From: Heterodontus francisci
Taxonomy: Eukaryota
DNA length: 64,000 nucleotides
Reading direction: 5' to 3'
Assembly (NCBI RefSeq): GCF_036365525.1
Contig: NC_090384.1
Location: 55,239,895 to 55,303,894 of the forward strand
Position 1 is the stretch's first letter, and each line of letters opens with the position of its first letter. Both the position numbers and the translations under genes were made by a program. The notes under the pieces are model-generated. The model made no database searches. It saw only the letters and a list, made by a program, of their open reading frames with translations, and was not told the origin of the DNA. Positions 18,969 to 47,349 of this stretch are shown here, one piece after another.

Positions 18969-19282
18969 CTTAAAATACCAAATGCATCTCCTTTTCAGTT
19001 ACTTTTTTAGTTTTTGAGTGAATAACCCGACATCGGATTAGTATGTCCCGATCAGATGGTTCTGGAGAAAATTCTATTTTTGTTACTGAACAGAAGAGAC
19101 CATTTGCAGCAATTTCAGTCTTTGTATTAGCCACCGGTCCTGTGAAGGGCTGCTTGCCTTTGAACCACTTAACTTCAATTTCTTGAGGTGTATAATCAGT
19201 CAGTAAAACAGTGAAAGTTGTCACTTTGTTTCTGGCTGCGTTGGGTTGCATTTGATTTCCGACAGTGGCATTTCTGACAAAC
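18969..19282 (-). pseudogene. Last visible IgC1-type exon, apparently frameshifted; B-strand Cys absent; stop just before a phase-1 donor
   Basis: Acceptors ttttaag| (exon start 19282) and tgtcag| (19273) read in phase 1 give (GLS)EMPLSEIKCNPTQPETK* with TGA at 19221-19223. The C1 body (NKVTTFTVLLTDYTP..W..NGLFCSVTKI..IRCRVIH..LVF*) is in another frame. Lengths of 314 or 305 nt are not multiples of 3, unlike all intact exons. The exon ends TTT TAA G|gtaaat. Confidence 0.7.
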
Positions 19283-19759
19283 CTTAAAACAGAACAGAAT
19301 ATGCAAATAATGAGTTAGTGCTATTTTCTGCAGATTGGTAGTTTGTCTCAACATTTTATTAAATGTATGTTAAATAATTTTGACAAATTAAATTGTTTAA
19401 TTTGGAAAATTTGGTTAGTATACTCATATGGTACAGCTGGGGTCGCTAGAAACAAAGGTAGGACTGAAGGAGTGTTTGGAGGCTGTGCAAGAGCCACAAC
19501 TCAAATATTCAACGGGATACCATTAAAAAAAGACTAAAAATAGATGTCATCAGGCCCAGATGATATGCATCCCAAAATACTGAAAGGATTAGGGGAAGGC
19601 GCTAAAAATCTTGGGAGATGGGAATTCTTCCAAGTTAACGCGAAAACAGCAAATGCTATACTGTTGTTTAAGAAAGGGATAAAAGGTAAGGAAATTAAAG
19701 TCTTGATTATTAATAAACTTTTACAGTCTATAATACAGGATGAAATTACTGGACAGCTG

Positions 19760-20222
19760 CTACCAAGTTATGAAGATAGATTGGAGAAGTTAAAAAAAAA
19801 AATAAAAAAGTTAGAACTGTTTTCCTTGAAGAAAAGGCTGAGAGGTGATTTGATAAAGGTGGTCAAAATCATGAGGGGGCTGGACAGAGTAGATGGAGAG
19901 AAACTGTTCCCACACGTGAAAGGATCGAGAATGAGGGCACAGATTTAAAGTATTTGGTAAGGGAAGCAAAAGTGACATGAGGAAAAACTTTTTCACGCAG
20001 CGAGTCGTTAAGGTCTTTAATCCGCTGCCTGAGAACGTGGTGCAGGCAGGTTCAATTGAAGCATTCAAAGGGAATTAGACAGTTATATGAAAAGGAAGAA
20101 TGTGCAGGGTTATGGGAAGGCAGCAAGGGAATGGAACTGAGGGAATTTCTCTTTCAGAAAGCCAGTGTGGACACGATGGGCCGAATGGCCTCCTCCTGCA
20201 TTGTATCGATTCTGTGATTTTG
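19760..20222 (+). mobile_element. Short 3' CR1 fragment; same subfamily at 3020-3410, 51645-52005 and 54640-54930 (-)
   Basis: RLRGDLIKVVKIMRG; shared tail tgaaaaggaagaatgtgcagggtta.gg. Confidence 0.8.
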
Positions 20223-20232
20223 TGAAATGCAC

Positions 20233-21290
20233 TGTTAATTCAGTCCCACTACTCCATAGGTCATAGCATATCAAATAAAGTTTCCCACCGACTGAAGAAT
20301 AGCCAAATAAACATTTTATTTGTCCCCCAGAATAAAGTACACCAAACCAGGTTTCTTTAAATAACATTAATTACGTATTAGGAAAAAAAAAGTCTTAACT
20401 ACTAACAAGATAAATCTATATATATGAAAAACTTCCTTACTTCCTTAACCCTCATGTACACACATATACATTTAAAAAAAAACTATTAACCGGGAGGAAA
20501 AGGATTTTGGTTTACAGCATTTTATTTTAGGAATAGAAGGAATAATAAAAATGATCAAGTTTAACATGTTCTGGTAGGATGTTTTCAGTACAGTGAAGTG
20601 TTCCAGAGTTGAGTAGTCCGATGTCACGTGAAGTCTCTCCAAGCAAGATTGATGAACAGTCTGATAGGTAGGCATTCACGGCAATTAAACTGCGGCAGAC
20701 GTCACATAGGTCTTCCATCACGGATGTAGCAACAGTCTAGCAGTAGAAGAATGCGTCAGATATCAGGATTTCTTAGCGCACAGGAGGCAGCAGGAACCAC
20801 AATGGATGCAGGGTTTCTTCTCAAGAGATGTAGGATTTCTTTACAGAGATGCAAATCTCCTTTATAGAGAGAGGTAACACTTTTCTGGGCCGTCCTCTCT
20901 TGCTCCAGGCAGGTCAAAACAAAGATTTCAAATTCCTGCTCTTTGTCCAATTCACTGGCTTTTTAAAGGGTTCAAAGTTATAAAAGAACCTTCCTGAACA
21001 TGGTCACATGTCCAGACACAGTGTCTCCCCCTGTCACTTAAAAGCTACCCATGAAAAGAGGTCAAACCCCTGTGGTTTCCTTGAAATTGCCTGCTGTCCT
21101 AGCCTTGTACAAGTTCAACTTCCTTTCAAAGAACCTATAAAGTTCAAATTTTTTTTACAAACTTCCTTTAAAAACATTGCAGAAATTCCAACTATCTGCA
21201 GGTGTCTTCTGCTGAGCAAAAATCCTTTTCTTAGCTTTTAATACACACAGAATTCTGAGTTCTGAGTATAAAAAAAAACCTTTGGTAACG
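20233..21290. mobile_element. Possible solo LTR
   Basis: About 1.05 kb non-coding block starting TGTTA and ending GTAAC(G), with near-matching flanks GCAC/GCAG. No internal genes. Weak evidence only. Confidence 0.3.
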
Positions 21291-21721
21291 CAGTCAATAT
21301 GGGTTTACAAAAGGTAGATTGTGTTTTGGGAGAGCCCTAAAGGTAGCAGCTCTGCATGGCAAACAACTGCACCCAGAAGGGTGATTTTAGTAGCAATTGC
21401 TCCTGACATTTCTCCGAGCTTTTACTAATGGTTTCAAGCACCACATCTGGGATCCTGCCTCATTTGGCATGCAAAACTTAATGGAAGTAACCAAAGTGTA
21501 ATGATTCAACACTTGGCAAACTCTAGTCCTCTGAAACCAAAGGTCTGGTCCATTTACCCATCTAGGTCCATTTACAATGGAAAGAAAAGGACTGAAAACA
21601 GGCATTCAAGTGTAGATTATCTTCTGCAGACATTTTTGTAGATAATGTGATAAATTCAGTTCTCATTTCCTAAATACTCTAGATTCCAGAGTAATTAGGG
21701 TTTTGTACCATTTTAACATAT

Positions 21722-21902
21722 CGGACAGTGTTAACCGTAGGTGTTGTTTAATAGGATTGGATAAAGCTTCATGTTCCACTACAAAGACAATTTCCTTATG
21801 ATCCAAAGCTGTTGGTGTTAACTCCAGGCATGAAAGTAACCAATAATAGCCACCTTTTTCCTCCTCAGGATCTACATCTGTGACTCCACTAAGGCAAGTC
21901 TC
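21722..21902 (-). pseudogene. Relict C-terminal half of a fifth post-TM IgC1 exon; 5' half lost at an L2 junction; donor mutated
   Basis: Manual translation ETCLSGVTDVDPEEEKGGYYWLLSCLELTPTALDHKEIVFVVEHEALSNPIKQHLRLTLS matches the D-E-F-G strands of the sister exons (GxY..S.L.L.P..D....VxH..L). It ends TCC G|atatgt at the phase-1 donor position, one change from gtatgt, and abuts L2 RT sequence at about 21905. Confidence 0.75.
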
Positions 21903-21904
21903 TT

Positions 21905-22465
21905 AAGGGCAGCATGTAGATGAGAAATAGGAGGGGGCCAAGGATAGATCCTTGGGGGAACACCAGCGGTAACAGTACAGGAGCAGAAGAAAAGCCATTG
22001 CAGGTGATTCTCTGGCTACGATTAGATAGGTAAGAAGAATGGAACCAGGCTGCAGACAAATGAAGGAGGATGAGGTGGGAAAGTTTATCTTTGTAACGGT
22101 CACCTAGGATGTCATTTGTGACTTTGATAAGAGCTGTTTCGGTATTATGACAGGGGCGGAAACCCAATTGGAGGGATTCAAAAAATGGCATTCCGGGGAA
22201 GATGGGAATGGATTTGGAAGGTGCCAAACGTTCAAGGACTTGGAAAAGAAAAGGGAGGTTGGAGATGGGATGGTAGTTTGCAAGGGCAGTGGGATCAAGG
22301 GTTGTTTTTTTGAGGAGGGGGGCGATGATGGCAGATTTAGAGGAAAGAGGACAACATCTAAAGAGAAAGATCTTTTTACAATATTGGCTAACATGGGGAC
22401 CAGGAGGGGAAGTTGGATGATCAGTTCTTTTTGAGAATAGGATGGAGGGAACAGGAGGTGACATC
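21905..22465 (-). mobile_element. L2 LINE RT fragment abutting the relict Ig exon
   Basis: ANYHPISNLPF, GFRPCHNTETALIKVTND, FPQGSILGPLLFLIYMLPL are typical L2 RT motifs. Confidence 0.85.
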
Positions 22466-22589
22466 TAATTTTAAAGTTCAGTTGGCCTCAGTCTATTTCT
22501 TAACTTTCATTCCTTTTTCACACATCACCAAGCTATTCCAGTTCTCAATGTAGTTCATTAGCTAATTGCAAAAGCCCTGAAACAACTGT

Positions 22590-22975
22590 TAATTATTTAA
22601 TAGGGCTCGCTAACCAATGCATTAGGGAATAACATTACAGTTAATTGTTCAATAGATCTCAGTAAACAATTGATAGGGGAATAATGTTACATTTAATTAT
22701 TAAGTTGGCTCTATAAACAATAGATAAGAGATCATGTTGGCTGCTAATTAATAAATTGGACTCAATAATCAATCCATATGGGAATAAAGTTAGTTAATTC
22801 TTAAGTAATGCTCAATAACCAATGTTAAATAATTGTTAAATAGTGCTGGATAACCAATACCTAGGGAATAGGGTTAGTTAATTAATAAATGTTTGTTAAA
22901 CAATACATTGAGTAAAAAGGTACATCAAATTATTAAATAGGGCTCAATAACCAATACATAGGGACTGTTCATTAT
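22590..22975. repeat. Degenerate AT-rich tandem repeat, unit about 48-50 bp, about 8 copies
   Basis: Recurrent unit aattattaaatagggctcaataaccaatacatagggaataa..gtt, for example starting near 22591, 22839 and 22928. Confidence 0.7.
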
Positions 22976-23980
22976 TAAAATTAACCTGTTCAAATTTTAC
23001 AAAAAATTAATGCTTCAGACAATAACAGAGCATTGCTTCTACCTTTATTTTCTATTGTTATCCATGATGCAGGAAAAGCAAAAGGTTCTGAAGTCGAATA
23101 AAATTGTGCATCTACTGGAATTTCAGAATAACTTATCTATTATATGCTGATCTAGTAAGAATGGTACTGTAAATCAGGATTTGCACAGAAGGTTTTATGC
23201 ATACTGAATACTGATATCCAAAGAGCTCAAATTAAAGGCAAAATTCTTGCATTCCCCGTTACTTATTATACTTCATGTCAAGGTCAATTAGCTCACTAAT
23301 TCATATCCATGATAGTAACAACTGACATTTTCTTTTGGTCAGAATGGATTGATGCTGATCATCCACGTTCTTCGGTTTGATTCCAGACCCTGTTTTGCCT
23401 TTTCTGCCACTTTCAATATTAGCCAATCTCTGAATTCCCCCACTCCAATGCCTAGAATTCCAGATTAGTTTGTCAGGTAGAACTGCTATGTTATTTGTTC
23501 AACTTATTCCAAATTATGGGCAATTTTACATTGTGGCCTGGAAGCAGCTAAGTTGAGACTTCCAAAAAGACTCATTATACTTGGCTAAATTCAAACCTAG
23601 GCCACAGAGGTGAAAAGGTGAGACTAACAAAACATTTCATTCAGTTTTCATAGGTTTTTTTAGTCTAATTAATATTTAGTCAGTTAAAAATCAAGAAATT
23701 GTGTGTTCCCATATGCAAACCAGGTATTATTTTGATGTGAAATGATCTGAAGTATCTTAACAGGACCCTGGCTGTTGCTAAAACCAAGATCAACTCATAG
23801 ACTTGAGTTCAATATTATCACAGTATAAGACTAAGATATGGCAGCACAGGTTGCCAGGACTGCAGTATGTGGGAGCTTGTGGACAGTGAGACTATCCTGA
23901 ATTGACATGTCTGCAGCAGATGACACCATTCAAATCTCTCTGACTCAGAATCATTGAGCTGGAAGCAAGTTGAAGACACT

Positions 23981-24330
23981 GGGCGGCACAGTGGCGCAGT
24001 GGTTAGCACCGCAGCCTCACAGCTCCAGGGACCCGGGTTCGATTCCGGGTACTGCCTGTGTGGAGTTTGCAAGTTCTCCCTGTGTCTGCGTGGGTTTTCT
24101 CCGGGTGCTCCGGTTTCCTCCCACAAGCCAAAAGACTTGCAGGTTGATAGGTAAATTGGCCATTATAAATTGTCACTAGTATAGGTAGGTGGTAGGGAAA
24201 TATAGGGACAGGTGGGGATGTTTGGTAGGAATATGGGATTAGTGTAGGATTAGTATAAATGGGTGGTTGATGTTCGGCACAGACTCGGTGGGCCGAAGGG
24301 CCTGTTTCAGTGCTGTATCTCTAATCTAAA
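23981..24330 (+). mobile_element. HE1-type V-SINE, full length
   Basis: gggcggcacagtggcgcagtggttagcaccg (A box), gggttcgattcc (B box), V-domain, tail gggccgaagggcctgtttcagtgctgtatctctaa. Confidence 0.9.
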
Positions 24331-26232
24331 CTGCCAACACATAAGGGAGGCAGAGGAGTATTTGGAGAGTTTGCTCCAGAGCTCAGGCACACCGTGTAGA
24401 GAGGTCCAGAATCAGAATTGGTTAAGCGTGACCGATAGTTTACGGAGTACGCAGAAGCAAGCTGATACAGAGAACTTACCCAGAAACTGATGCTCTCCAA
24501 TAGATACAATGTACTTGTCACATGTGCAGATAAGGATAAAAAGTGTCGAAAGGACAGCCAGAATGCTGATCACAGCACCCTGAAGCAGAAGGGAGGAGGT
24601 AGGGAAACATAATGTGCTACTTGTAAGGAATTCAATAATTAGGAGGACGGATAGCATGCTTTGAAAGCAGGATCAACAGCTCCACGTGCTATATTGCTTA
24701 CCTGGTGCCAAGGTGAGCAGGATGAGAGACATTTCAAACTGGACTAAAAGGACATTAGAAGGGGGAAGGATCCAGTCACTGTGATCTGATTGTTGGGACC
24801 AACAACATAGCCAAGGAGTAGACAAGGATCGAAATGAAAAAACTGAACCTCAGGGGTTACAACCTCTGGATTATTACCAAAGCCATGTGAAAATTAGCAG
24901 AGGGATAAGCAGATTAGGGAGGTGAATACATGGCTGAAGGAGTGGTATGGGAATGAAGAGTCCCATTTCAAGGGACACTGGCACAGTACTGGGACATGAA
25001 GGAAATGTTTTGTTGCAATGGACTCCACTTGAACTGGGCTGGGACAAAGATATAGGGGTGATCACAAGAACTTTAAACTTGTAATTTTAGCAAACTGGAG
25101 TGGGGTGGCAGGGATAGGGGTCAGGTGGAAAAACTAGTAGAAATAATAATTCTAAAACAAATAAAAAGGTAGAGAATAGAATAGTCAGAAATTATGCTAG
25201 GCACTACATGTAAAGGGACAACTAAAAGATGTAAAGCCATTAAATCAGGAGATTAATAAATAAATGTGTGAGAAAAACAACATTAGAACAGCAGGAAAGG
25301 TTAGGACCCAAATAAGTGTTCTTATACAAACTCAGAGTATAAGGAACAACATGAATGAATTGCAGGTGCAAATTTATTTAGAGAGTATGACATGGTAGCC
25401 ATTACTGAGACATGGCTGCAAGACTGTCAGAACTGAGAACTGAAGCAGGTTATAAGTTCTACAGAAAGATAGGGAATATGATAGAGGTGGAAGAGTAGTA
25501 TTATTGATTATGAAACTACTTCTATGAAAGGAGAGGATATAATGAGAAGTAAACAGATAGTGGAGACTTTAGGGGTAGAATTAATAAAAGACTTTAAGAC
25601 TGTAGTGAGACTTGTGTGTAGGAACTCTGCTGACAACTGTGAAGTGGCAGGATGTATTGATGTAAAGACAAGATATAGTAAAGGCTTTAGTAGGGATTTT
25701 TAAACTTCCATATCAATTGTGATAAGCAGACAAGCTCATGTCAGAAAGAATTAATTTCCAGAGCGCGTTCAGGAGAGCTTTCCACAATATGTCCTACAAC
25801 CAATGAGGGAGGGGGGCAGGGGTACGACAGGCCTAATTATATTTGGTAATGAGCAATGACCCAGATTTAGTTAACAGCCTACTGGTATGTGACTATTTAT
25901 CTGTTGCAACCATAATATGATTGAGTTCAATGTTGTGCTTCAACAGAGAAACATGAAACAGATACTGAGATTCTAGATTTAGGTAAGGCCGACTTCATCG
26001 GGATGTGACGCTGATCATTGTAAACCGGGCAAATATGGTACTGGGTAAAATGACAAAAGATCATTGGGAGGTGTGCAAAAAAAAATTCAATATGATGCAC
26101 TGAGCAAGAGCTCGACTTGCCATGGAAAACTAAAAGGGTAAGGACAACATAAAAGAATGAAAAATAAAGCATACAAGAATGCAAAAAACAGCACTGATCC
26201 TGGTGAATGGGAGAACAGCAAAGGATAACAAA

Positions 26233-27535
26233 TGGACTTATTAGCGAGAGGCAGCATGGTTTTGTGAAGGGGAGATTGTGCCTCACTAATTTGATTGAGT
26301 TTTTTGAGGAAGTGACAAAGATGATTGATGAAGGAAGGGCAATGGATGTTATCTATATGGACTTCAGTAAAGCCTTTGACAAGGTCCCGCATGGCAGACT
26401 GATACAAAAGGTGAAGTCACATGGGATCAGAGGGGAGCTGGCAAGATGGATACGGAACTGGCTCGGTCATAGAAGACAGAGGGTAGCAGTGGATGGGTGC
26501 TTTTCTGAATGGAGGGATGTGACTAGTGGTGTTCTGCAGGGATCAGTGCTGGGACCTTTGCTGTTTGTAGTATATATAAATGATTTGGAGGAAAATGTAG
26601 CTGGTCTGATTAGTAAGTTTGCGGACGACACAAAGGTTGGTGGAGTTACGGACAGTGATGAGGATTGTCCGAGGATACAGCAGGATATAGATCGGTTGGA
26701 GACTTGGGCGGAGAAATGGCAGATGGAGTTTAATTCGGACAAATGTGAGGTAATGCATTTTGGAAGGTCTAATGCAGGTGGGAAGTATACAGTAAATGGC
26801 AGAACCCTTTGGAGTATTGACAGGCAGAGAGATCTGGGCGTACAGGTCCACAGGTCACTGAAAGTGGCAACGCAGGTGGATAAGGTAGTCAAGAAGGCAT
26901 ACGGCATGCTTGCCTTCATCGGTTGGGGCATAGAGTATAAAACTTGGCAAGTCATGTTGCAGCTGTACAGAACTTTAGTTAGGCCACACTTAGAATATTG
27001 TGTGCAATTCTGGTCGCCACACTACCAGAAGGACGTGGAGGCTTTGGAGAGGGTACAGAAGAGGTTTACCAGGATGTTGCCTGGTCTGGAGGGCATTAGC
27101 TATGAGGAGAGGTTGGATAGACTCGGATTGTTTTCACTGGAACGACGGAGGTGGAGGGGCGACATGAAAGAGGTTTACAAAGTTATAAGCGTCATGGACA
27201 GAGTGGATAGTCAGAAGCTTTTTCCCAGGGTGAAAGTCAGTTACTAGGGGACATAGGTTTAAGGTGCGAGGGGCAAAGTTTAGAGGGGATGTGCGAGGCA
27301 AGTTCTTTACACAGATGGTGGCGAGTGCCTGGAACTTGTTGCCGGGGGAGGTGGTGGAAGCAGGTACCATAGAGACGTTTAAGAGGCATCTTGACAAATA
27401 CATGAATAGGATGGGAATAGAGGAATACGGACCCCGTAAGTGCAGAAGGTTTTAGTTTAGGCAGGCATCAAGATCGGCGCAGGCTTGGAGGGCCGAATGG
27501 CCTGTTCCTGTGCTGTACTGTTCTTTGTTTGTTCT
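26233..27535 (+). mobile_element. Young 5'-truncated CR1 insertion with a long open RT segment and 8-bp TSD
   Basis: 346-aa ORF with [30 protein letters not shown]; CR1 3' tail; direct repeat ATAACAAA at 26225-26232 and 27536-27543. Confidence 0.9.
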
Positions 27536-28998
27536 ATAACAAAACAGATAATAAGAGCTTCAAAAAGTGTGTATGAAAAGAAACTTGCAAAGGATACCAA
27601 AATCAACACAAACAACTTTTACTATTATTTTAGGGAAAAGAGGGTGGTTAAGTGTAATGTGGCCCCCTTAAGAAATAGCAATGGTGACATTATAAATGAA
27701 AATAAGAAAATGGCAGACATGTTAGAGAATTACTGTCAATTTTTCCAGTACAGGAAAATTCTGGATATCCCATGAAGCAAATATTGAATCAGAGACAGGA
27801 ACTCATTAATGCAAGGAAGAAAATAATGGCACTAATGAGTGACAATTCCCCGGGACCAGAGATTTAAAGAAAGTCGGTGACAACATTGTCATTGCCCTAA
27901 CTTTAATCTTCCAAAGTCCTCTCAATTCAGGAACCACTCCTTTAGATTAGAAAATTGCACATGTTACTGCGCTATTTAAGGAAGGTGAGAGAGGGAAACC
28001 AGGGAATTAAAAAGACTGGTTAATCTAATATCTATTGTCGGGAAATTACTACAATCTATAATTAAGGATGGAGTGACTGAATACCTCGAAAATTTTCAAC
28101 TGATCAAAGAGAGCCACGTGGACTTGTGTCTGACAAACCAGTTTAAATTTTTTGAAGAGGTGACTAAAGTAGAGGACAGGGAATGTCTTTGGATATTATT
28201 TACATTGATGTCTAGAAGACATTCAATAAATTGCTTCATGGAATTGAGAGCAAATTATTGACCTGGCTAGGAGATTAGCTGAGTGACATGAGACAAAGAA
28301 TAGGGCTAATGGACAGATACTCAAATTGTCAGGATGTGATTTGTGGCGTCCCATAGGGATCGGTGTTAGTGCCTCAACTATTTACAGTATTTATTAGATG
28401 ATCTGATAGACAGCCACATATCCAAGTTTGTTGATGACACAAAAAAGGCAGCATTGGAAGCAGTGTAGATGGTAGCATAAAGTTACAAAGATATTAATAG
28501 ATTAAGTGAATGGGTAAAACTGTGCAAATGGATTTCAATATAGGCAAGTGCGAGGCCATCCACTGTAGACCTAAAAAAAGATAGATCAAAGTACTTTCAA
28601 AAAGGTGAAAAGTTAGAAACAGTGGAGCTTCAAAGCGACTTGGGGTCCATGTACATAGATCATTAAGATGTCATGGGCAGGTACAAAAAATAATTAAAAA
28701 GGCTAATGGAATGCTGGTCTTTATATCAAGCTGACTAGAATACAATGTGTTAGAAGTCATGCTGCAGCTATACAAAGACCTGGTTACAACACGCGTAGAA
28801 TACTGCGTTCAGTTCTGGGCATCACACCTTAGGAAGGATATGCTAACTTTGGAGGGAGTGCAGTGTAGGTTCAGTGCAATGATACCTGGACTCAAGAGTT
28901 AAATTAAGAGATGAGATTACATAAAGTAGGACAGTATTCCCTGGAATTTAGAAGCCTGAGGGTGATCGAAGTTTTCTCAATATTAAGAGGAACTGATA

Positions 28999-29563
28999 GG
29001 GCAGGATTTTGTTCAGCCCTTGGACGCTGGCACAGAGGCGAGTGGGCAAACAAAATGGCAGGCTGTGCCATTCCCAATGTTGTCCAGGCGCCTATCATTT
29101 TGTCCATGGCAGGAAAGACCATCAATTTGCCACTTAAGGGCCTCTTGCTGCCTCCACCTCACTTTTGTTGAAGGCGAAGGGGCCCTCTGCCACAGGAAGA
29201 TGCCACCACGTAAAGCCTGGTGGCCTCCTAATGGGGTTTGGTGGGCTGGTGGGGGGACAGGGGGCCTCCTTTGGGGGCAGTCCAGGGTTCCCAGAGGGTC
29301 GTCCTGGTGGCGCTGGATGTCCCTACTGGGAAGAACCCCCCCCACCACCCCCCCCACCCTGTTGCCTGCCTGACCCCATGACCCGACTCCACTTACCTCT
29401 CCAGGGGTCTTCTCCAATATTTGTACTGCAGGTAGCTTCCGGTGGCTCTGGTAGTGGAAGATTGTCCCATAAAGGGATGGCATCCCCAACTGAGTGCAAT
29501 AAACTGCCTGCCCGCTATAAAGTAGCATAGAGGGTCCAATGAAGGGCAGGCAATTTACTGCAC
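28999..29563. mobile_element. Decayed GC-rich MITE related to the 41054 element
   Basis: Starts gggcaggatttt, ends caatttactgcac, and shares the internal gccacttaaggg motif with 41054-41723. Confidence 0.5.
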
Positions 29564-29574
29564 AGAGTCAGAGA

Positions 29575-29975: not shown

Positions 29976-30385
29976 AAAGTATTGGAAGTTCATGCTAATC
30001 TGTGATCTAGTTATAAAAAAAGGACCAGAAAGTAGGAAATATAAGCACAATATATATATTTCATAAACATCAGCACTTTCTGAATTTTTGACACAAAACA
30101 TTTGCAGTAATTTTGCAGTTGTAGTTATTTAAATGTGAAAATTTGACAAAACATTCCTGTTTATAGATAAAAGCAAAATACTGCAGATGCTGTAAATCTG
30201 AAATAAAAACAGCAAGTGCTGAAAATAATCAGCAGGTCAGGCAGCATCTGTGAAGAAAGAAGCAATAGTTAATGTTTCAGCTCTGTGACCTTTCATCAAA
30301 ACACCAATTCATAGAAATATGCAGCTAACATGAAGTTTAGTACTAATGTAGTTCAGTATAGAAAAAATATGCACTGAATTCTTAC

Positions 30386-30709
30386 CTCTAAGACGTAAAA
30401 TGAAACTGGACCTTGAAGGCCTGTGTGAAGTTGGGAAATGAAGAACCTCAACTTTGAATTCCATCAGATGATATTCTGGCTTAATTAACAATTTCCATTG
30501 ACTTTCACGGTAGAAAAGACCAGTCTCTTCATCTTTTTGGGGGTCAGTAGAAATAATTCCTGGATCATCAGTTCTTTCATCATTTTTGAACCACATGAAC
30601 ATTGTTTCCTTTGGAAAGAAGCCATGTGCATAGCATACAATTGTTGCTTCTTCTCCTATCATTGGGAATTCTGGTATACTTTTTATGTATTTTACTAATG
30701 GAGGAGATA
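30386..30709 (-). CDS. NCR3LG1: Post-TM IgC1-type exon 4 (F-strand Cys replaced by Val)
   Basis: Acceptor tgttgttacag|TA, donor AGAG|gtaaga, 324 nt, phase 1-1. VSPPLVKYIKSIPEFPMIGEEATIVCYAHGFFP..W..TGLFYRESQW..MEFKVEVLH. Confidence 0.82.
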
Positions 30710-35850: not shown

Positions 35851-37284
35851 ATCAGTTAGTTTGATGTCAGCAATAGGGAAAATGTTAGAATCCATTATAA
35901 AGGACGTGATAACTAGACACTTGGAAAATAATATGATTGAGCAGAGTCAACGTGGATGTATGAAAGGGAAATCATGCTTGACAAACCTGTCAGAGTTTTT
36001 TTGAGGATGTTACTTGTAGCACAGATAAAGGAGAACCAGTGGATATAGTGTATTTGGATTTTCAGAAGGCATTTGATAAGGTCCCACACAAGAGGATAGT
36101 CAACAAAATTAGAGCACATGGGATTGGGGAGGTAACATACTGCTATGGATTGAAAATTGGCTAACAAACAGAAAGCAGAGAGTAGGAATAAACAGGTCAT
36201 TCTCAGGATGACAGGCTGTTACTAGTGGGGTACTACAAGAATCAATGCTTCAGAGACAGCTGTTCACAATCTATATAAATGATCTGGATGTGTGGACCAA
36301 CTGTAATATTTTCAATTTGGCTGATGACACAAAACTAGATGAGAATGGAAGTTGTGAGGAGACTTCAAGGGGATTTGGACAGGCTAATTGAATAGGCAAG
36401 AACATGGCGGATGGAATATAATGTGAATAAGTGTGAAGTTATCCACTCTGGCAGAAAAAAAAACAGAAAGGCAGAGTATTTCTTAAATGGTGAGAGATTG
36501 GGAAGTGTTGATGACCAAAGGGACCTGGGTGTCCTTGTTCATGAGTCACTAAAAGCAAGCAATTAGGAAGGCAAATGCTATGTTGGCCTTCATTACAAAG
36601 GGCTTTGAGTACAGGAGTAAAGATGTCGTGCTGCAATTGTGTTGAGTCTTGGTGAGACTGGAGTACTGTGTACAGTTTTGGTCTCCTTATCTAAAAGGAA
36701 GATATACTGGCCATAGAGGGAGTGCAATGAAGGTTCACCAGACTAATCCCTGTGATGGCAGGACTGTCTTACGTGGAGAGATTGCAGAAACTGGGCCTGT
36801 ATTCTTTAGAGTTTCGAAGAATGAGAGGTGATCTCATTGAAACTTACAAAATTCTTACAGGGCATAACAGGGTAGATATGGATAGGATGTTTCCTCCGGC
36901 TGGTGAGTCTAGAACCAGGGACTTAGTCTCAGAATAAGGGGTAGGCCATTTAAGACTGAGATGAGGAGGAATTTCTTTACTCAAAAGGTGTGAATCTTTG
37001 GAATTCTCTACCCTAGAGGGCTGTGGAAGCTCATTGAGCATGTTCAAGACTGAAATTAATTGATTTCTGGATACTAATGACATCAAGCGATATGGGGATA
37101 GTGGGGGAACAATGGTGTAGAGGTCGGTGATCAGCCATATGTTTGAATGGTGGTTGAGCCGAATGGCCTACTCCCGCTCCTATTTCCTATGTTCCTAACA
37201 AAACCAACTACATATGAATAGTGTTCCAAAATAAACATTAGAATATTTTAATATAATAATGTCAATATAAAACATTTTACTTAC

Positions 37285-37596
37285 CCAAAGGAGCTAGTTC
37301 ACATGCAGTCTTTCTGGACTCTGTGATACTTTTGTGCTGGAATTCACAAGTCAACATCTTGCCAAAATCTTCCCTAACAGGTGTGAATTTCAGACGACTT
37401 GTAAAATAATAAAGGCCATCCTTTCCGAGGACTGCTTCAGTATCAGCATTCATTACCTCCAATATGATACCATCCTTTTTCCAAATAACTTTAATATCTT
37501 TTGGAAAGAAGGAATATATTCTACAAGATGCACATGCACGTTCATCTACAATTGGAGCTTCTGGTGTCAGTTTTATATCATCACATTTTGGGATAG
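37285..37596 (-). CDS. NCR3LG1: Post-TM IgC1-type exon 3 (both canonical Cys present)
   Basis: Acceptor ctttcctcag|CT, donor TTGG|gtaagt, 312 nt, phase 1-1. AIPKCDDIKLTP..ASCRIYSFFPKDIKVIW..DGLYYFTSRL..LTCEFQHKSI. Confidence 0.85.
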
Positions 37597-38039
37597 CTGA
37601 GGAAAGATGGAGAATTTTGATAGCATTGAACAGTGAAATATCTGCAGCAATATTTTTAAAACTGATTTTGGATTGAATCATTCAAAAGAAGCATAACAGT
37701 TTAAGCAGAAACAGACTTCAGCTCGACAACTTTACAAACTACAGTGCAAATGTTTGGTTTTAATTATACATCTGTATTGTCATCCCTTCACAAAATCCAA
37801 CAAATAGCTACTAACCATTCTATCACTGGATAGGCCCATTAGCTGCACCTTACTGATCATTTCTGAAAGTACCCTTGGAGGGCCGAAGGGCCTGTTCCTG
37901 TGCTGTAATTATCTTTGTACCCACACTAGAAGGGATATCCTAACTTCACCCTCATTATTCTACCCTGGGATCCACAGAATCTATCAATAAGCATTCCGAT
38001 GAAAGGTCACAGACATGAAACGTTAACTCTTTCTCTATG

Positions 38040-39465
38040 TAACACCTCTATTCAAGAAATGAGGGAGACAAAAAAGCAGGAAAGTATAGGCCAGTTAGCT
38101 TAACATCTGTCATAGGGAAAATCCTAGAATCCATTATTGAGGAGGTAATAGGGCATTTAGAAAATCATAATTCAATCAGGCAGAGCCAACATGGTTTTGT
38201 GAACAGAAAATCATGTTTGACTAATTTATTAGAGTTCTTGTGTAAGTAACAAGCAAAGTGGATAAAGAGAAACCCGCAGACGTAGTGTACTTGGATTTCC
38301 AAAAGGCATTCGATAAGGTGCCACATCAAAAGGTTACTGCACAAAATAAGAGCTCATGGTATAGGGGAAAACATATTAGCATGGATAGAGGATTGTTCAC
38401 TGACATGAAGCAGAGAGTAGGGATAAATGGGTCATTTTCAGGTCATTATTAGTGGAGTGTCACAGAGATCAATGCTGGGCCCTCAACTATTTACAATCTA
38501 TATCAATGACTTAGACGAAGGGACGAAATGTATGGTACCTAAATTTGCTGATGACACAAAGGTAGGTAGGAAAGTAAGCTGTCAAGAGGACAGAAAGTGT
38601 CTAGAAAGGAATTTAGATGGGTTAAGTGGGCAAATATTTGGTAGATGGAGTTATAATGTGGGAAAGTGTGAACTTGTCCAATCTGGCAGGAAGAATAGAA
38701 AAACAGTATACTATTTGAATAGAGAGAGACTGCAGAACTCTACGGTACAGAGGGATCTGGTTGTCCTGGAACATGAATTACAATAAGTTGGTAGCAGGCA
38801 CAGCAAGTGATTAGGAAGGCAAATGAAATGTTGCCGTTTATTTCAAGGAGAATCGAGTATAAAAGTAGGGAAGTGTTGCTACAGCTGTACAGGGCCTTAG
38901 ATAGACTGCATCTGAAGTAGTGTGTGCAATTTTGGTCTCCTTACTTAGGAAAGGCTATCATTGCGTTAGAAGCAGTTTAGAGAAGGTTGACTCGACTGGG
39001 ATGAAGGGGTTATCTTATGAGGAAAGGTTGCACAGGTTCTACCCATTGGAGTTTAGAAGAATGAGAGGTGATCTTATCGAAACATAAAAGATCTTGAGGG
39101 CACTTGACAGTGTGGATGCTGAGCAGATGTTTCTCCTTCTTGGCGAATCCAGAACTAGGGGACACAGTCTAAGAATTAGGAGTCTCCCATTTGAGATTGA
39201 GAGGAGGAGAAACTTTTTCTCTGAGGGTCGTTAATCTGTGGAATTCTCTTCCCTAAAGAGCAGTGGAGGCTGGGTCATTGAATACATATTCAAGGCTGAG
39301 TTAGATTTTTTGTTTATTTGACAAGGGAGTCTAGAGTTATATAGGGACAGACAGGAAAGTGGAATTGAGGCTGCAATCAGATCAACCATGATGTTATCAA
39401 ATGGCAGAGCAGGCTCGAGGGACCGAATGACCTACTCCTGCTCCTAATTCTTATGTTCTTGTGTT
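38040..39465 (+). mobile_element. 5'-truncated CR1 LINE (RT and 3' tail)
   Basis: DVVYLDFQKAFDKVPH, KFADDTKV, 3' tail cctactcctgctcctaattcttatgttctt. Confidence 0.85.
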
Positions 39466-41053
39466 TGTGTCCTCTCCACAGATGCTGCCAAACCTGCTGA
39501 GCATTTTCCATGTTTATTTTAGATTTTCAGCATCCGTAGTATTTCGTTTTTGAATAAGTGAAAAATGTGTGAGAATCCTGAGACATTCCTACTTCAAGTT
39601 TTCTTGTTAATTAAGAGTTAACTTAAATACTATGACTGACTGCAGACTTCTTTAATTGCATTTAATGTGACTTCACAATTCTCCAGCTTTGTAAATGAGT
39701 TTCAGAACATTGTAAATTAGATTTTTCACGAACTGTCATTTAATAAAATGCTTATACTTAATCTTCTACTTAACTATATTTTTATCCCTGCTTGCGATAC
39801 GCCCTGGTTAGAAGTGGCCGAGAAGTGACATGATGGGAAACTGTGGCCTGGACCATCAATGGACAAATGTTTTATTGATCCCAAATGTTTTAAAAGGAAT
39901 GAAATGGTCAAAAAATAAATTTCAGCAGGAATTCAAGCAGTGTGTTAAAACAGACTGTGTGTGAGAGAACTAAAAGATAAACACAGTGGTCGACTTCCAG
40001 AGGTCCAGATTGAAAGCAGAGGAAGCAATAGAGTCTTGAATCCTAAACCAAGGCCACCATATTTCCTTGCTTCAGTTAAGCTCGTCATTGGAATGTTTAT
40101 GAGCTGATAGGAGTCCAACCGTGTGAAAACATTTAAAGCCAGGGATCGCAAGACTCTGATATGGCCTGGGCAGGAAGATGGATAGGTGACATATCTTTCA
40201 ATTGGGCAGCTCGAATCCTAGTAAAGCAACGATTGGGTTAGATTGGTCTCCATCAGTTTTGCTGTGTAGCAAAGTAATAAGAAAGGGTGCTCTGAGCACT
40301 TAAGGTGTAGAGCAATTTGTCTAGGGGCTTGGGACCATCCTACAGACAAACCCTCAGGGAAGGACAGGCTGGCAGAGGGACAACACATGTATATGTCGCA
40401 TTGACTGACCATTGGAGTAGTCACACGGCAATCGCCCTTCTATCTAAAGCATTACGGTAATGCAGTTGCACTTTGATACTACTGCTCAGGCATTAACATG
40501 TTTGTTCCCTAGATTAGTCAGTGTTTGCTTATAATGAAAGAAATTGAACTGTCACCAATAAGGGTATCACTCGAATCAATTTGGAACTGGACAGTGAAGG
40601 GGTTAATCGACTCTGACCCCCAAATTCTAACATATTTCAACACACTATTAAGCAAACAGTTAGTTTTGGAATAGTGTGCACTGTAACAAAACCATACACA
40701 GTCAAGTTTCGCTATACTTCAAAATAATCTAGGGAACAAAATACTTCTACATATTCAAGCTTTGCTACATCAGGGAGTTCTGCTTTTGGTGCTGAGATGA
40801 GGCATCGTCAACACCATTGTGCCTGCCAATATCAAATTAACAAAAGCAGTAGATCGGATAAGTACCCCGACTATCATGAACCCTGATCTCATGTTATTAA
40901 ATGCATTGACAGAGTCAGAACAACACAGCAGAGCTGTTTGTAAAAGTTATGCAGAGCACTACTTGGCCAGCTTTGCACACAGTCCAGGTTTATATCCAGT
41001 ATTGAATGAACCACAATTTCCTCCAGTTAAATGTTAGGAAGCCCAAAGCCTAT

Positions 41054-41723
41054 GGCCGGAATTTTACGCTGGGCGGTCGGGAGCCGGACTCTGACGTAAA
41101 TGTCGGTGCCGATCCCGCTCCCGCCCAGCCTGGGGATCTGTCCAGTATTTTACGGATCCCCAGGCTTCAATTGGCCCAAGGCAGGACTTACACCCACTTG
41201 AGGGAGGAAGTCCTGCCTCAGTGAGCTGCCGGCCAATCAGCGGGCCAGCAGCTCTTAGTCTCAGCAGCGCCACTGCTGAGACTGCAGCCCATCCGACAGA
41301 GGAGGACGCAATGGAACCGGGACAGAAGATAAGTTCGGACAGCCTCACCAGGGGAATTGGTCACGCCCTGGTGAGGGTAGGGTAGTCGTTTGGGGGGAGG
41401 GAGGGCGTCTTGGATCCCGGGGTTGGGTTGGGAGGCGGGGCGGCCCCCCCGGGATGCGGAAAGGCCAACAGCTATGGCTGGGTGGCCTTTCACGTACCCG
41501 GCACACCCGCTTGCCACGGGTAAAATACCTGCGGAGGTGGGCAAGGGCCATTAAGTGGCCACTTAAGGGTCTTGATTGGCGTTGGGCGAGCGGGCCGCTT
41601 CTCACCTCCGGACCTCCGCAAACTTGGTCGGAGGCGGATATTCGGGGCGGTTAGGCCTCCCGGAGCCTGCCGCTCAATTTTACGCCGCCCTCCGACCCTC
41701 TGTGGCAGCGTAAAATTCCGGCC
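41054..41723. mobile_element. Non-autonomous TIR element (MITE, PIF/Harbinger-like)
   Basis: Perfect 18-bp terminal inverted repeat GGCCGGAATTTTACGCTG / CAGCGTAAAATTCCGGCC, GC-rich interior, flanks TAT/GAT (possible decayed 3-bp TSD), inserted in an L2 remnant. Confidence 0.75.
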
Positions 41724-43005
41724 GATGTCTTCATCCTCTGCCACAAACTCCATAATATTGCCACTGACTCTCTGACGGATCTGAACCAGACTATTCACTA
41801 CTTCGGCATCCTATCGGATTCCATCGCTCCATCAGAAAGTGGGCTTCCTTCCAGCTCTATAATATAATCTAACTCCTCTCCATCTCCGCCCATGTGCCCC
41901 TGAAACCCTCATCTGTGTCTCTTACTTCCAGGCTCTATTATTACAATGATTTATTGGCCTAAATCCCATTCTGCACCATCAGTAAATTTCAGTTCATCCA
42001 AAATTCAGCTACCTGTGCCCTGTCCAACACCAAGCCTCATTTAACAATCACTAAGGTACATTGGCTCCAAGTCCTTTCAATTTAAAATTCTCGAAGTTGA
42101 ATCTCCCATGGCCTTTCTCCTTCCGACAACTCTAACCTCCTCCCAACCTAAAACCCCCCAATCCATATTCTCCATCGCTCTAATTCTGACCTCTAATGCA
42201 TTCTTCCTCCCCCAACACACACCTGCTAACCCTTAGCAGCACTAGTGGCTTATGCTGCCTAGTTTGCATGCTTTGGAATTCCTTCCCTAAACTCCTGTGC
42301 CTTTCTACCCACTTCTACTCTTTCAAGATTCTCCTTAAAACACAGCTCCTCAATCCTCTTAATACCTGCTTCTCTGGCTTATTCTGATTACACCTCTGTG
42401 AAGTACCTTTTCTACATTCCAGACACCACAGCAACAACCAAGGACTGGGAGACCAGGAGAGAGCAAATTGGTCAGCAGAAAGTGAGGGGAGCCACAAACT
42501 TAGTTTATCAAAATGAAATTCTGTATAATTTAATGTTAAAACAGGCCTGCCCAAATTTTAGACAGATGTTCAATAAACTAAATTCAATGTAAAAATGAAT
42601 CCACTATATTTTAATATAACCAAAAACTCTCAGTTACAGTTTTCATTTCCCCTTCTTCACCCTATGATATCCACTGCAAGATAATCCACAAGAAGGGCTT
42701 CACAAATATAGCAAATGTCTTTCTCACCCTCAGGTGGAATGTTTCACTATTCCTGATTGTTCCACCTTACCCAAGATCTTGTAAACCTGATCACATCTTA
42801 CAAAACAAACAGTCCTGTGATTGCAACACAAGCAATGTCAGGTGAATGTCTTACTGCTAACTAACCACCCACCTAATCTAATATTCTTTTAACCTCTTGA
42901 AAAACGCACTCTAATTATTCATTGTGATTTTCAGAAAACAAATATTGTAGCTAAAACGGTAGAAAAACATGTTAAATAAAATGGTCAGAGAAATGCTGAC
43001 AATAC

Positions 43006-43383
43006 CTTTTATATTTAAATTAACCTCTTTACATAGTGATGAATTCGTGGCTGGATGTTTTACTTCACAAACATACCCTGCGTCATGGTCTTCACAAATG
43101 GTTGGTATAAAAAGTAGAATGCTGGTGACACTGTATGTGTTGTCTTCATATTCCAGTTCAGTTATACTGTGGGCATATTTGGGTTGCTCTGTTTCTCTCC
43201 CATCAATGAATTCTGTTTTTCCTGGCTCAAGTTTCACAATTTCTTTGGTTATGCCGTTCTTTTGTTTGTACCAAGTGATAGCCAGCGGTCTGGGTTTAAA
43301 TCCATTGATAGGGCAGGTCACGGCGAGCACTTCTTCATGAATAATATGAGGCGGTATTACTATATCAGTCATCCTCGGTTCAA
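43006..43383 (-). CDS. NCR3LG1: Post-TM IgC1-type exon 2 (both canonical Cys present)
   Basis: Acceptor tttattcccttttgaaaaaaag|TT (slightly atypical), donor AAAG|gtattg, 378 nt, phase 1-1. EPRMTDIVIPP..VTCPINGFKP..ITW..DNTYSVTSIL..DAGYVCEVKHPA. Confidence 0.82.
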
Positions 43384-44344
43384 CTTTTTTTCAAAAGGGA
43401 ATAAAATAAAATATTTACTATTTTAAAAGTTCTCAGAAGTTATAGCGTATAGACTACATTAAAAAAAGTTTGTTACCTACTGCCTATCAAGTACAAAGGG
43501 AAATTCAGGCAAAAAAAAGCATCTAACGCTGTTGTACACAGTCCAAACAGCTGGCCTCACCAGACAGTACAAGATAGCCAGTAATAGAATTTTAAATGTG
43601 GTCCACACTACTTCAGGCTTATTCAGGAAATATAACTATGAGACACCATGCAAAATGTTCCAACTGTGCAATCCTTTAGGCTCAAATTTAAAGGCATGTA
43701 TCCAGTTAAAAGAAATGGGCAAATGAGAAAAAAAAATTATGCAAAGGCTCAAAAATGACTTTTTAAAATTTTTTAATCTCTACAAATGTAGCATGGGAAA
43801 TGACAAGCACGAATTAATCTGCAGGACACAGGAACAAAGCAAACAGCCCAAGATTTCATGTCACAAAGTGCTGCCATGCTTACCCATGCCAAGCCCTCTC
43901 TCAACATGACAGCTCTTTCACTGCATCTCATCAAACCCATATCTCTGCAGGGCACGCAGTCAAGTTGCATACACAACTAAATGCTTTGCCAAACACTTTT
44001 AATGACTTCATTCAATAAATTATTGCAACACAAATATGGTCACTAACTGTTACCTAGAAAGAGCTTCCATTTGGGCATGTCAGCCATCAGCATCTCCCCC
44101 ACCTACTTCACAAAATAAAGCAGTGTTGTGACATTGGAAAGTTGTGTCATGCTATCCAGTATGAAAAGATATGAAAATACTGATCAGTGCAATTGTTTTA
44201 TATTTGTGGGCATCACATTCGGTGACCTTACAGTGCTAGATAGGAACAAACTGAAGGTATAGCTGTGTGGAGTGATAGCCTTGCCGACCACTAGGACTGC
44301 CATATATATGTTGCAAGGTGTCTGCAAATGTCGTTTTCGCTGAT

Positions 44345-46095
44345 GACATGGTCCTACAACTTCTTCTTTGGCCTCATTGTCTCGAGAGACAATGGTTTTT
44401 GAAGCAGCACCTGGAGTGGCTATAAAGGCCAATTCTAGAGTGACAGACTCTTCCACAGGCACTGCAGATAAAATTGGTTGTCGGGGTTGTTACACAGTTG
44501 GTTCTCTCCTTGAGCTTTTTTTTTTTGCCAACTGCTAAGTCTCTTCCACTCGCCACTCTTTAGCCCTGCCTTTATGACTGTCCGCCAGCTCTGGCAATCG
44601 CTGGCAACTGACTCCCACGACTTGTGGTCAATGTCACAGGATTTCCTGTCGCGTTAGCAAACGTCGTTTAAAGCGGAGACATGGATGGCCGGTGGGTCGA
44701 ATACCAGCGACAAGCTTGCTGTACAATGCTTCCTTGGGAATCCTGCTATCTTCCATGCGGCTCACATGGCCAAGCCATCTCAAGCGCCCCTGGCTCAACA
44801 GGGTGTATATGCTGGGGATGTTGGCCACCTCCAGGACTTCTACGTTGGAGATACGGTCCTGCCACCTGGTGCCAAGGATTCTCCGAAGGCAGTGAAGATG
44901 GAATGAGTCGAGACGTCACTCTTGACTGACATACGTTGTCCAGGCCTCGCTGCAATAGAGCAAGGTATTGAGGACACAGGCTTGAAACACTCGGACGTTT
45001 GTGTTCCGTGTCAGTGTGCCATTTTCCCACACCCTCTTGGCCAGTTTGGATGTAGCAACGGATGCCTTTCCCATGCGCTTGTTGATTTCTGCATCGGGAG
45101 ACAGGTTACTGGCGATGGTTCAGCCCAGGTAGGTGAACTCTTGAACCACTTCCAGAGCGTGGTCGCCGATATTGATGGATGGAGCATTTCTGACATCCTG
45201 TCTCATGTTATTCATTTTCTTGAGGCTGATGGTTAGGCCAAATTCATTGCAGGCAGCCGCAATCCTGTCAATGAGTCTCTGCAGACACTCTTCTGTGTGG
45301 GATGTTAATGCAGCATCATCAGCAAAGAGAAGGTCCCTGATGAGGACCTTCCCTACTTTGGTCTTCGCTCTAAGATGGGCAAGGTTAAACAACCTGCCAT
45401 CTGATCTTGTGTGGAGGAAAATTCCTTCTTCTGAAGACTTGAACGCATGCGAGAGCAGCAGTGAGATGATGATCCCAAACAGTGAGAACACAGCCCTGTT
45501 TCATGCCACTCAGGATAGGAAGGGGTCTGATGAGGCACCGCTATGCTGAATTGTGCCTTTCATATTGTCATGGAATGAGGTGATGATACTTAGTAACTTT
45601 GGTGGACATCCGATCTTTGCTAATAGTCTGAAGAGACCACGTCTGCTGACGAGGTCAAAGGCTTTTTGGTGAGATCTATGAAAGCAACGTAGAGGGGCAT
45701 CTGTTGTTCGCGGCATTTCTCCTGTAGCTGGCAAAGGGAGAACAGCATGTCAATGCTTGAAAGCCGCACTGTGCCTCAGGGTAGACATGCTCAGCCAGCT
45801 TCTGGAGTCTACTTAAAACAACTCGAGCGAAGACTTTCCCCACTACGATGAGCAGGGAGATTCCACGGTAGTTGTTGCAGTTAACGTGGTCACCGTGGTT
45901 CTTACAGAGGGTGATGATATTGGCATCGCGCATGTCCTGTGGTACTGCTCCCTCATCCCAGCACAGGCAAAGCAGTTCATGGAGTGCTGAGAGTGTAGCA
46001 GGCTTGGCGCTCTTGATTATTTCAGAGATAATGTCGTCCTTTCCAGGGGCTTTTCCATTGGCTGGAGAATCAATGGCATCACTGAGTTCCTACAA
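44345..46095 (-). mobile_element. 5'-truncated RTE-clade (BovB/RTE-1-like) LINE
   Basis: NYRGISLL, PEAQCGF, KAFDLVSR, DGRLFNLAHLRAKTK..DLLFADDAAL, RLRWLGHVSRM, C-terminal CSACGRVCHSRIGLYSHSR and a short gaa-repeat tail near 44360. Confidence 0.88.
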
Positions 46096-46923
46096 CTGAT
46101 TCCTGCTAATTTATAGTAAGCAGAGACAGTTATTCCTGGTCATTTGCAAAATGGTATGCCAAAGCCTACAGGTACGATCTGGTTCTTATTGATCTCCAGG
46201 TCATGATTTATTTCATCATGCCAGTTCATTCAAGAAATAGTGCATGAGAAACATTTTTAAAAATTACAAGTCGTAAACAAAAGTTAGCTCCTAAATATTG
46301 CTCCAAAAATACATAATTAAAAATTTCAATAAATATGGAAAAATGCCAAAAACAGTTCTGTAAACATTGCAACCAAAAACTCCCTCGCGTGCAGCATCCC
46401 TTGCTCTTGTTCTCATCAATTCACAAAGGAAAAATAGCAAACCTGGTATAAATGTTATAGAATTGTGCTCAATATTTAAATATTCTTCCATACAACCCAA
46501 GGCTTAAATGACACCAAGAGGATTTCATCTGTCTAAATTCACAAGATTGATTAATTATAGACCAGAAGGCGACACTATAGGACCAGCTTTCCAAACATTG
46601 TGATCCAACTGTGTTTGTTGCACATCTGCTCTTCATACAAAGTTAAAATTAAACACTAGGAGAGCACTGGTATAAGAGGAGGCAGCTCAGAATGTACAGA
46701 ATGAATTGGATAAAATACATAATGAGCAAAGCAATATCGGGCTTCATGTGTTAGTGACAACTTTTCCATTTTGTAATGGTGGATCATTTACCCATAATAT
46801 TCTGGAAATCATTCCATAACAAGGTAGTTTCAACTATGTAAAAATAAATGTACAGGTATATCTCTTTATAAACAAAATTTATTCAGTTATGCTCATTTGA
46901 TATCACTTGCAACATTTACTTAC

Positions 46924-47349
46924 TTCCTTCAACTTTCAGCATGATCTTCTTAATTATAGGCTTTGCAAGAGTACTATGTTGGACTTGAACCTGCAGAGTG
47001 GCTCCATCATCTTTATGAATATCAGGCAATAGCATAACTTTGCAATGCACACTGGAGCTACCATCATTGTTGTGCTTAACAACTGGCATCTCAAATTTGA
47101 AGGATCCACCTTGCTCATCAAATTGAGATCCATTTATTGAAATAAGTTTCTGCTGGTCATCTGCTGTAGGATTCTGAGTTGTATAGGTCCACTGATAAAT
47201 CTCATTTGGCTTGTCTTCCCATTTTCTTTGTAGTGACCAGTGAACAGAAATGTTCTCAGGCCTATACCCAGAAATCTGACAATTCAGAAGAGCTTCTTGC
47301 AAATGTATAATCCGTGGAGGTTTGCTGATATCAGAAACTTTTGGAGGAA
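46924..47349 (-). CDS. NCR3LG1: Post-TM IgC1-type exon 1 (predicted cytoplasmic; long central insert; F-strand Cys absent)
   Basis: Acceptor tttttttttag|TT, donor GGAA|gtaagt, 426 nt, open, phase 1-1. VPPKVSDI..LNCQISGYRPENISVHW..NNDGSSSVHCKV..DDGATLQVQVQHSTL. Confidence 0.82.

Follow-up and report, generated by a model that had tools for sequence, protein, structure and literature searches.

A C1-set immunoglobulin chain behind the transmembrane segment of a shark B7-H6-type protein, predicted to be cytosolic

The gene analysed here lies on the minus strand of a 64,000-nucleotide stretch of the horn shark Heterodontus francisci (contig NC_090384.1, positions 55,239,895 to 55,303,894), referred to below as the window. 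By sequence comparison it is the counterpart of nurse-shark B7H6, with a V-set immunoglobulin (Ig) domain (V), a C1-set domain (C1), a transmembrane (TM) segment and then the C1-set domains D1–D6. It is probable, in our assessment, that the product is a B7-H6-type membrane protein whose C1-set chain behind one TM segment is likely cytosolic and likely a docking scaffold for ligand display. The tail array is real, conserved and unusual within the known B7-H6 family; its function is predicted. In the following assignments, B and F denote the strands that carry the canonical cysteines.

57541..57903, minus strand: V-set exon of the ectodomain, with both Cys and, in the FG loop, the NKp30-contact Thr-Pro kept (V-set profile E 4.6e-10)
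56715..57035, minus strand: C1-set exon of the ectodomain, with both Cys and one invariant extra Cys (KHICTGS) (C1-set E 3.9e-13; RNA-spliced to TM)
49117..49233, minus strand: TM exon with the basic end YLKYLRK, phase 1-1, in-frame skipping possible (hydropathy 3.04; RNA joints on both sides in 4/4 runs)
46924..47349, minus strand: D1, post-TM C1-type domain with a long insertion; F Cys replaced by Val, B Cys kept, E-strand Cys present (profile, codons, spliced RNA)
43006..43383, minus strand: D2, post-TM C1 domain with both Cys; most conserved tail domain, with the motif TCPINGFKPRPL (profile; spliced RNA)
37285..37596, minus strand: D3, post-TM C1 domain with both Cys (profile; RNA-spliced to D2)
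30386..30709, minus strand: D4, post-TM C1 domain, F Cys replaced by Val; final intact domain of the horn shark (profile; in both RefSeq isoforms)
21722..21890, minus strand: D5 relict, reduced to its 3' half, with Phe at the F strand and lacking a GT donor at the expected position (sequence comparison with orthologues)
18969..19282, minus strand: D6 exon, B Cys replaced by Val, frameshift near 19235 (sequence comparison); final TAA at the natural end of six-domain orthologues

The ectodomain, whose IgV domain is membrane-distal and whose IgC domain is membrane-proximal, was nearest B7-H6; human B7-H6 was the best PDB match (E 1.6e-32; B7-H3, 3.5e-20). A type I topology is predicted from the leader found in the RefSeq protein, the one internal TM segment, whose exon is spliced in, and the basic residues after it. 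RefSeq XP_067902345 (Heterodontus francisci) contains the D1 exon sequence at 100% identity. Of the 11 B7-H6 residues tabulated as contacting NKp30 in the available part of PMC3135353, four appear identical to human by alignment: Gly62, Gly83 and the pair that makes both hydrogen bonds, Thr127 and Pro128. The nurse-shark protein QTT61907.1 (980 amino acids, deposited as B7H6) is 69% identical to the horn-shark protein and has the V-C1-TM-D1..D6 layout with the same four Cys replacements; unlike it, the horn-shark copy is without a working D5 and D6. Nurse shark has another B7H6, 1092 amino acids long, and several tandem paralogues are present in sharks.

The exons V, C1, TM, D1, D2, D3 and D4 are all phase 1-1. 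The C1-set Pfam cut-off was exceeded by D2, D3, D4 and D6, while D1 scored 20.2 bits against a cut-off of 21 and the D5 half 14.6. RNA contigs carried the joints C1-TM, TM-D1, D1-D2 and D2-D3, all GT-AG, in 4/4 runs (2 samples, 2 studies); no run is recorded as RNA, and it is these spliced joints that mark the contigs as transcripts. A single contig of 2321 bases (run X2) covers C1 through D3. Contigs from a close relative extend 1081 and 1080 bases beyond D3 (runs X3 and X4; window positions 37250-57200). Adding up D4 (324), an intact D5 (312) and a further 444 bases counted from the D6 acceptor would put the end at 18839, next to the poly(A)-type signal found at 18830; this contig-length arithmetic hints that the close relative still has D5.

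A preliminary description of this DNA had reported one canonical Cys missing from each of four post-TM domains. All its motifs were located on the minus strand in the exons named, and the replacements were verified codon by codon: Val at the F strand of D1 (46990-46988; B Cys retained at 47281-47279) and of D4 (30452-30450; B Cys retained at 30635-30633), Phe at the F strand of D5 (21785-21783) and Val at the B strand of D6 (19209-19207; F Cys retained at 19032-19030). The B–F intersheet pair is missing in D1, D4, D5 and D6 and found in D2 and D3, the two tail domains said to keep it; V and C1 likewise carry both Cys, as described. The C-strand Trp was found in D1–D4 and D6. Retention of Trp, [FY]xP and VxH in the altered domains held for D1, D4 and D6; D5 shows VxH only, its 5' half (B Cys, Trp and FxP) being absent from the window. 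The noted sequons are present, NIS and NGS in D1 and NSS in D2.

Only D5 had been called a relict. It is one, its 5' half having been deleted and replaced by a long interspersed nuclear element (LINE) reverse-transcriptase fragment, and that half was not found in the window by hidden Markov model or by tblastn with eight orthologue pieces. D6 also carries a frameshift, and two of the four examples (D5 and D6) are exons unable to yield an intact domain in this assembly. The RefSeq isoforms, of 792 and 797 amino acids, both terminate soon after D4. Judged from these sequences, with D5 half deleted and D6 frameshifted, the horn-shark protein retains four domains in its tail, and two of these have lost a canonical Cys. 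The TAA ending D6 was considered as a further sign of decay and rejected, since the stop has the same position in six-domain orthologues. The tail also ends after D4 in four lamniform and carcharhiniform species; six domains are found in carpet sharks, rays, Heptranchias and Pristiophorus. On this comparison D5–D6 are dispensable, being gone in the lamniform and carcharhiniform sharks and decayed in the horn shark.

Eighteen cartilaginous-fish proteins were treated as orthologues on identity. The F-strand position is non-Cys in D1 and D4 of 18/18, and D5-F and D6-B are non-Cys in the 13/13 that possess D5 and D6. All four losses are common to the coelacanth and bichir, and the caecilian shares the three that can be scored. 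The two Cys columns were masked to compute a tree of 507 domains, in which D1–D6 mostly form position-specific groups (support 0.67-0.99) that draw members from shark, chimaera, coelacanth, bichir and caecilian; D1 adjoins the Cys-keeping D2, and D4 the Cys-keeping D3. Because the losses are common to sharks, rays, coelacanth and bichir in position-specific groups, the domain comparison places them as four separate events, all older than the divergence between cartilaginous and bony fishes. The wording 'repeatedly lost' is correct as to four separate events, and needs amending in that they are ancient and inherited. Among frog paralogues, in which the tail can reach 14 domains, there is a large group with neither Cys. 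In-frame skipping of modules is annotated for D1 in Hemiscyllium isoform X2 (P0187) and for the TM exon in Carcharodon, Cetorhinus and Bombina (P0002, P0003, P0036).

Cys losses through pseudogene drift in a functionless, decaying tail might be suspected from the damage to D5 and D6 in this assembly and from the four lamniform and carcharhiniform species that end after D4. The preliminary description had set retention of both Cys in orthologues as its own refutation; Cys was not retained at the lost sites. The same replacements occur in intact orthologues and in bony vertebrates, which largely refutes drift, and D1–D3 are spliced in frame. Among the 12 six-domain orthologues, identity is 54-64% for tail domains against 64-67% for V and C1. 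Compared across these sequences, the losses are not pseudogene drift, an explanation to which we give almost no credence.

The weight of the canonical cysteines was assessed over 150 family representatives, of which 77 have the V..TM..C layout with one internal TM segment; V-C1-TM followed by three C domains is the commonest layout (15/150). In the 77 proteins, after 10 gapped domains were dropped, both Cys are present in 81/92 pre-TM and 212/423 post-TM C domains. A first-pass Fisher test gave p 1.8e-12, a value that uses raw domain counts, ignores relatedness and includes a few domains mislabelled as V. In arrays ahead of a C-terminal TM segment both Cys are present in 32/33 scored domains (5 proteins; 3 gapped domains dropped). 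Post-TM replacements are hydrophobic in 171/172 F-strand and 130/141 B-strand cases, and Trp is retained in 388/419 post-TM domains; the description of core-compatible hydrophobic replacement with Trp kept is thereby borne out for the family. Within a shark-type subfamily of 39 proteins, both Cys are present in 40/40 pre-TM and 82/182 post-TM domains, and after correction for the tree there were 0 changes on a length of 24.8 before the TM segment against 25 on 135.0 behind it (p=0.015). Trp changes in the subfamily number 0 pre-TM and 3 post-TM, far fewer than in the other core columns.

Further evidence on location comes from residues outside the canonical pair. Free cysteines are disfavoured by endoplasmic reticulum (ER) quality control. 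Among the 18 orthologues, variable non-canonical Cys occupy 0/221 ectodomain columns and 39/679 tail columns (p 2.6e-5); they occur in all six tail domains, including D2 (3 columns) and D3 (9 columns), and no comparable difference between ectodomain and tail in variable columns is seen for W, M, H, F or Y. The counts over the 77 proteins, which share ancestry, run in parallel. Non-canonical Cys make up 0.40% of the ectodomain and 1.78% of the tail, the tail being higher in 75/77. Sequons take up 243/898 Asn of the ectodomain (27%, expected 15%) and 301/1853 of the tail (16%, expected 14%), with a greater density in the ectodomain in 68/77. Mean net charge is -0.45 before and +2.4 after the TM segment, the C-terminal side being higher in 65/77, and in the horn-shark gene one internal TM segment is followed by basic residues. 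The extra-Cys, sequon and charge counts all point one way, to a cytosolic tail. Extra-Cys turnover, sequon density, the charge bias around the TM segment and spliced RNA are better support for location than the loss of canonical Cys. From these sequence features we judge it very probable that the tail lies in the cytosol.

Several observations weigh against a cytosolic docking tail. Corrected for the tree over all domains, Cys changes number 5 on a length of 55.5 pre-TM and 44 on 262.7 post-TM (p=0.12, not significant). Other core columns of the subfamily also relax behind the TM segment (F/Y 0 against 12 changes, His 1 against 10, Pro 1 against 10), and 11/92 pre-TM C domains are without a Cys, 10 of them from one paralogue group. 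D2 and D3, like V and C1, keep both Cys in 18/18 orthologues, and D2 and D3 do so across jawed vertebrates. An invariant E-strand Cys of D1 (47044-47042) was absent from the preliminary description. The NIS-type sequon of D1 is found in 14/18 orthologues and in 14/59 of all rows, D-I-x often standing there elsewhere. Annotation lists TM-less isoforms for Carcharodon and Cetorhinus (X2 of 742 against X1 of 781 amino acids) and for Bombina, and 9/150 representatives start V-C with no TM segment detected. A motif scan of the horn-shark tail gave no match resembling an immunoreceptor tyrosine-based inhibitory motif (ITIM).

The claim that Cys loss 'independently supports' a cytoplasmic location and selection on the fold accordingly stands only in part: its conclusion is well supported, and the Cys evidence itself is weaker and less independent than supposed, given the two tree-corrected values, the inherited events and the relaxation of other core columns. 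Taken alone, the loss of canonical Cys is moderate sequence evidence for a cytosolic tail, consistent with that location and no proof of it. The presence of both Cys in D2 and D3 does not contradict a cytosolic location: titin M1 carries a B/F Cys pair with the sulfhydryls 4.0 Å apart (PMC6922384, available part).

In the paralogue group mentioned above (P0068, P0075, P0087, which is from Xenopus, P0143, P0148, P0151 and their kin) the B Cys of the extracellular C domain is replaced, mostly by Ser, leaving a lone F Cys. If the array were extracellular or lumenal in the main product, through failure of stop-transfer or an inverted topology, the Cys losses could be ordinary divergence of extracellular Ig domains, for which this group and the p value over all domains can be cited. 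Extracellular Ig domains free of disulfides do exist, as in CD2 D1 and the CEACAM N domain. The strong single TM segment followed by basic residues opposes such a topology, as do the disulfide Cys and sequon enrichment of V and C1, of which the tail has neither, and the confinement of variable Cys to tail columns; we regard it as very unlikely.

The main rival is a dual location, the tail being cytosolic in the TM form and a secreted, TM-skipped V-C1-D1...Dn also functional, for example as a soluble NKp30 decoy in which D2, D3 and possibly a B–E pair of D1 would form disulfides. The phase 1-1 of the TM exon would permit it, the annotated TM-less isoforms fit it, and the conserved Cys pairs of D2 and D3 and the E-strand Cys and conserved sequon of D1 would find a use. 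In C1 geometry the E-strand position of D1 adjoins the B Cys within one sheet, and siglecs have a B–E Cys pair; by that analogy such a pair in D1 is conceivable. Soluble forms of human B7-H6 also exist (PMC6514059, available part). Among the 15 joints listed, with 406 weaker rows lying below that listing, there was no C1-to-D1 joint, though contigs drop rare forms. The turnover of free Cys in D2 and D3, something that selection acting in the ER ought to remove, and the D1 sequon column filled in so few of all rows also speak against a secreted form. We hold it to be unlikely.

Other cysteines stand apart from these pairs. The third Cys of the ectodomain C1 (KHICTGS, 56715-57035, minus strand) is invariant in 18/18 orthologues, as is a TM Cys, and each of them could be a site of interchain disulfide formation or of palmitoylation; the human B7-H6 C domain has an odd Cys too, at a different position. 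D6, without its B Cys, has a near-fixed A-strand Cys (EIKCNP, 18969-19282, minus strand; 11/12 orthologues), and a Cys lies near the start of D3 in 14/18 orthologues. These two are candidate buried-thiol substitutions or alternative pairs.

An Ig fold is predicted for all eight domains. An AlphaFold model of the intact Heptranchias orthologue has eight beta-sandwich domains at a mean predicted local distance difference test score of 87.9; D1 modelled alone scored 86.6, with its insertion disordered. The best structural match of the D1 model was the human B7-H6 C domain (Z 12.4, root-mean-square deviation (rmsd) 1.8 Å, 98 aligned), tied with the C1 domain of major histocompatibility complex (MHC) class II (Z 11.7). 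The model-based match fits an origin of the tail by exon duplication within the gene and does not prove it. The modelled V + C ectodomain superposed on human B7-H6 with a template modelling score of about 0.9 on the target and an rmsd of 2.0-2.6 Å. Whole-model Foldseek searches returned mostly generic multi-Ig chains and the ESM Atlas generic C1/C2 clusters only. A homodimer prediction for D1–D3 (two copies, alignment unused) scored 0.00, which speaks neither for nor against a dimer. The Tyr motifs of the tail sit within or next to predicted strands, and none is put forward as a signalling motif.

For the cytosolic scaffold the following course may be proposed. An exon of B7-H6 C1 type would have been duplicated to a place behind the TM exon while cartilaginous and bony fishes were still one lineage. 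In the cytosol the B–F disulfide of the tail domains would not form and, once that bond need not be maintained, a canonical Cys would count as one of several buried hydrophobic residues, replaceable by Val, Leu, Ile or Phe, as may have happened in D1, D4, D5 and D6, or kept as a buried thiol, as in D2 and D3. Selection would continue to act on Trp and the fold while free cysteines were gained and lost. Outside the close shark orthologues 20/127 columns of D2 are conserved at ≥80%, against 22/107 in the ectodomain C1, and because D2 is about as conserved as C1 a conserved binding surface in D1–D3 is suggested. The D1–D3 core, and the D2 surface especially, would then bind a partner in the cytosol, and this partner would govern how the NKp30 ligand is retained or clustered, or how much of it stands at the surface. 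This least certain step, in which sequence conservation would reflect control of ligand display, seems to us evenly balanced; the recruited partner is inferred to be of trafficking, cytoskeletal or signalling type.

Several known systems bear on this proposal. BTN3A1 and BTN2A1 combine a B7-like V-C ectodomain and a TM segment with a folded cytosolic B30.2 domain that governs what lymphocytes see outside. Shark B7-H6 would resemble butyrophilins in layout only, their cytosolic module being B30.2 and the shark's Ig. TRIM21 binds Fc. A more speculative scheme, which we consider quite improbable, makes ancestral B7-H6 a two-sided sensor, the cytosolic C1 chain binding a pathogen product or an Ig-binding protein (e.g. 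of the PRY-SPRY/TRIM type) and switching NKp30-ligand display from the inside out, as in butyrophilins. Were it true, a disulfide-free intracellular C1 role would date from the origin of jawed vertebrates, with 12-14 copies in frogs and the human Gag-like tail a later replacement.

The Ig domains of titin are of the I-set. Titin is a soluble filament, whereas the shark tail is C1-set by profile and hung on a receptor; by analogy the M-band and I-band arrays of titin share with it tandem cytosolic Ig domains and a non-conserved Cys pattern. The M-band Ig domains are cytosolic, with Cys that are non-conserved and mostly buried (PMC6922384, available part). Human B7-H6 (NCR3LG1; PDB 3PV6, 4ZSO, 6YJP) has a V + C ectodomain and is a type I membrane protein, like the predicted form of the shark protein. 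Its cytoplasmic part resembles Gag and contains ITIM, SH2 and SH3 motifs (PMC2715080, available part). The shark tail is C1-set Ig throughout and has no such Gag-like part, which is a human trait and not clearly one that defines the family.

The literature search found no description of the Ig tail, the principal B7H6 papers having fallen outside its reach, and the tail goes unmentioned in the available parts of PMC12227049, PMC10751288, PMC6514059 and PMC13262535. Prior notice of the layout in print is plausible because the nurse-shark depositors had full-length sequences, and we put the chance of it at about one in two. The usual teaching presents C1-set domains as extracellular elements, pinned by a disulfide, of antibodies, T-cell receptors, MHC molecules and a few relatives. 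An ancient, selected C1 chain on the cytosolic face of an NK-cell ligand, if true, would be a natural series for C1 stability without the disulfide and would bear on the design of intracellular antibodies. The human B7-H6 tail would then be a derived state, having taken the place of a large ancestral module for signalling or trafficking.

Two further features lie within the gene.

27457..27533, minus strand: alternative short last exon of RefSeq isoform X1, non-Ig (resembles 37918-37874; likely repeat-derived)
21892..22464, minus strand: LINE reverse-transcriptase fragment at the place expected for the D5 5' half (RVT_1 E 1.7e-05, under the curated cut-off)

A search of the window gave no further Ig exon and no second TM exon downstream of the known exons of the gene. 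A leader-like exon, MGWTGNSMLLLVALVTQVPLS, followed by a GT donor, lies at 3803-3865 on the minus strand and is close to the gene's own RefSeq leader, itself outside the window. No V exon follows it within the window, and it likely opens a tandem paralogue that continues beyond the left end. Introns throughout the window are rich in LINE reverse-transcriptase fragments and short repeats, one of which is the likely source of the alternative last exon at 27533-27457.

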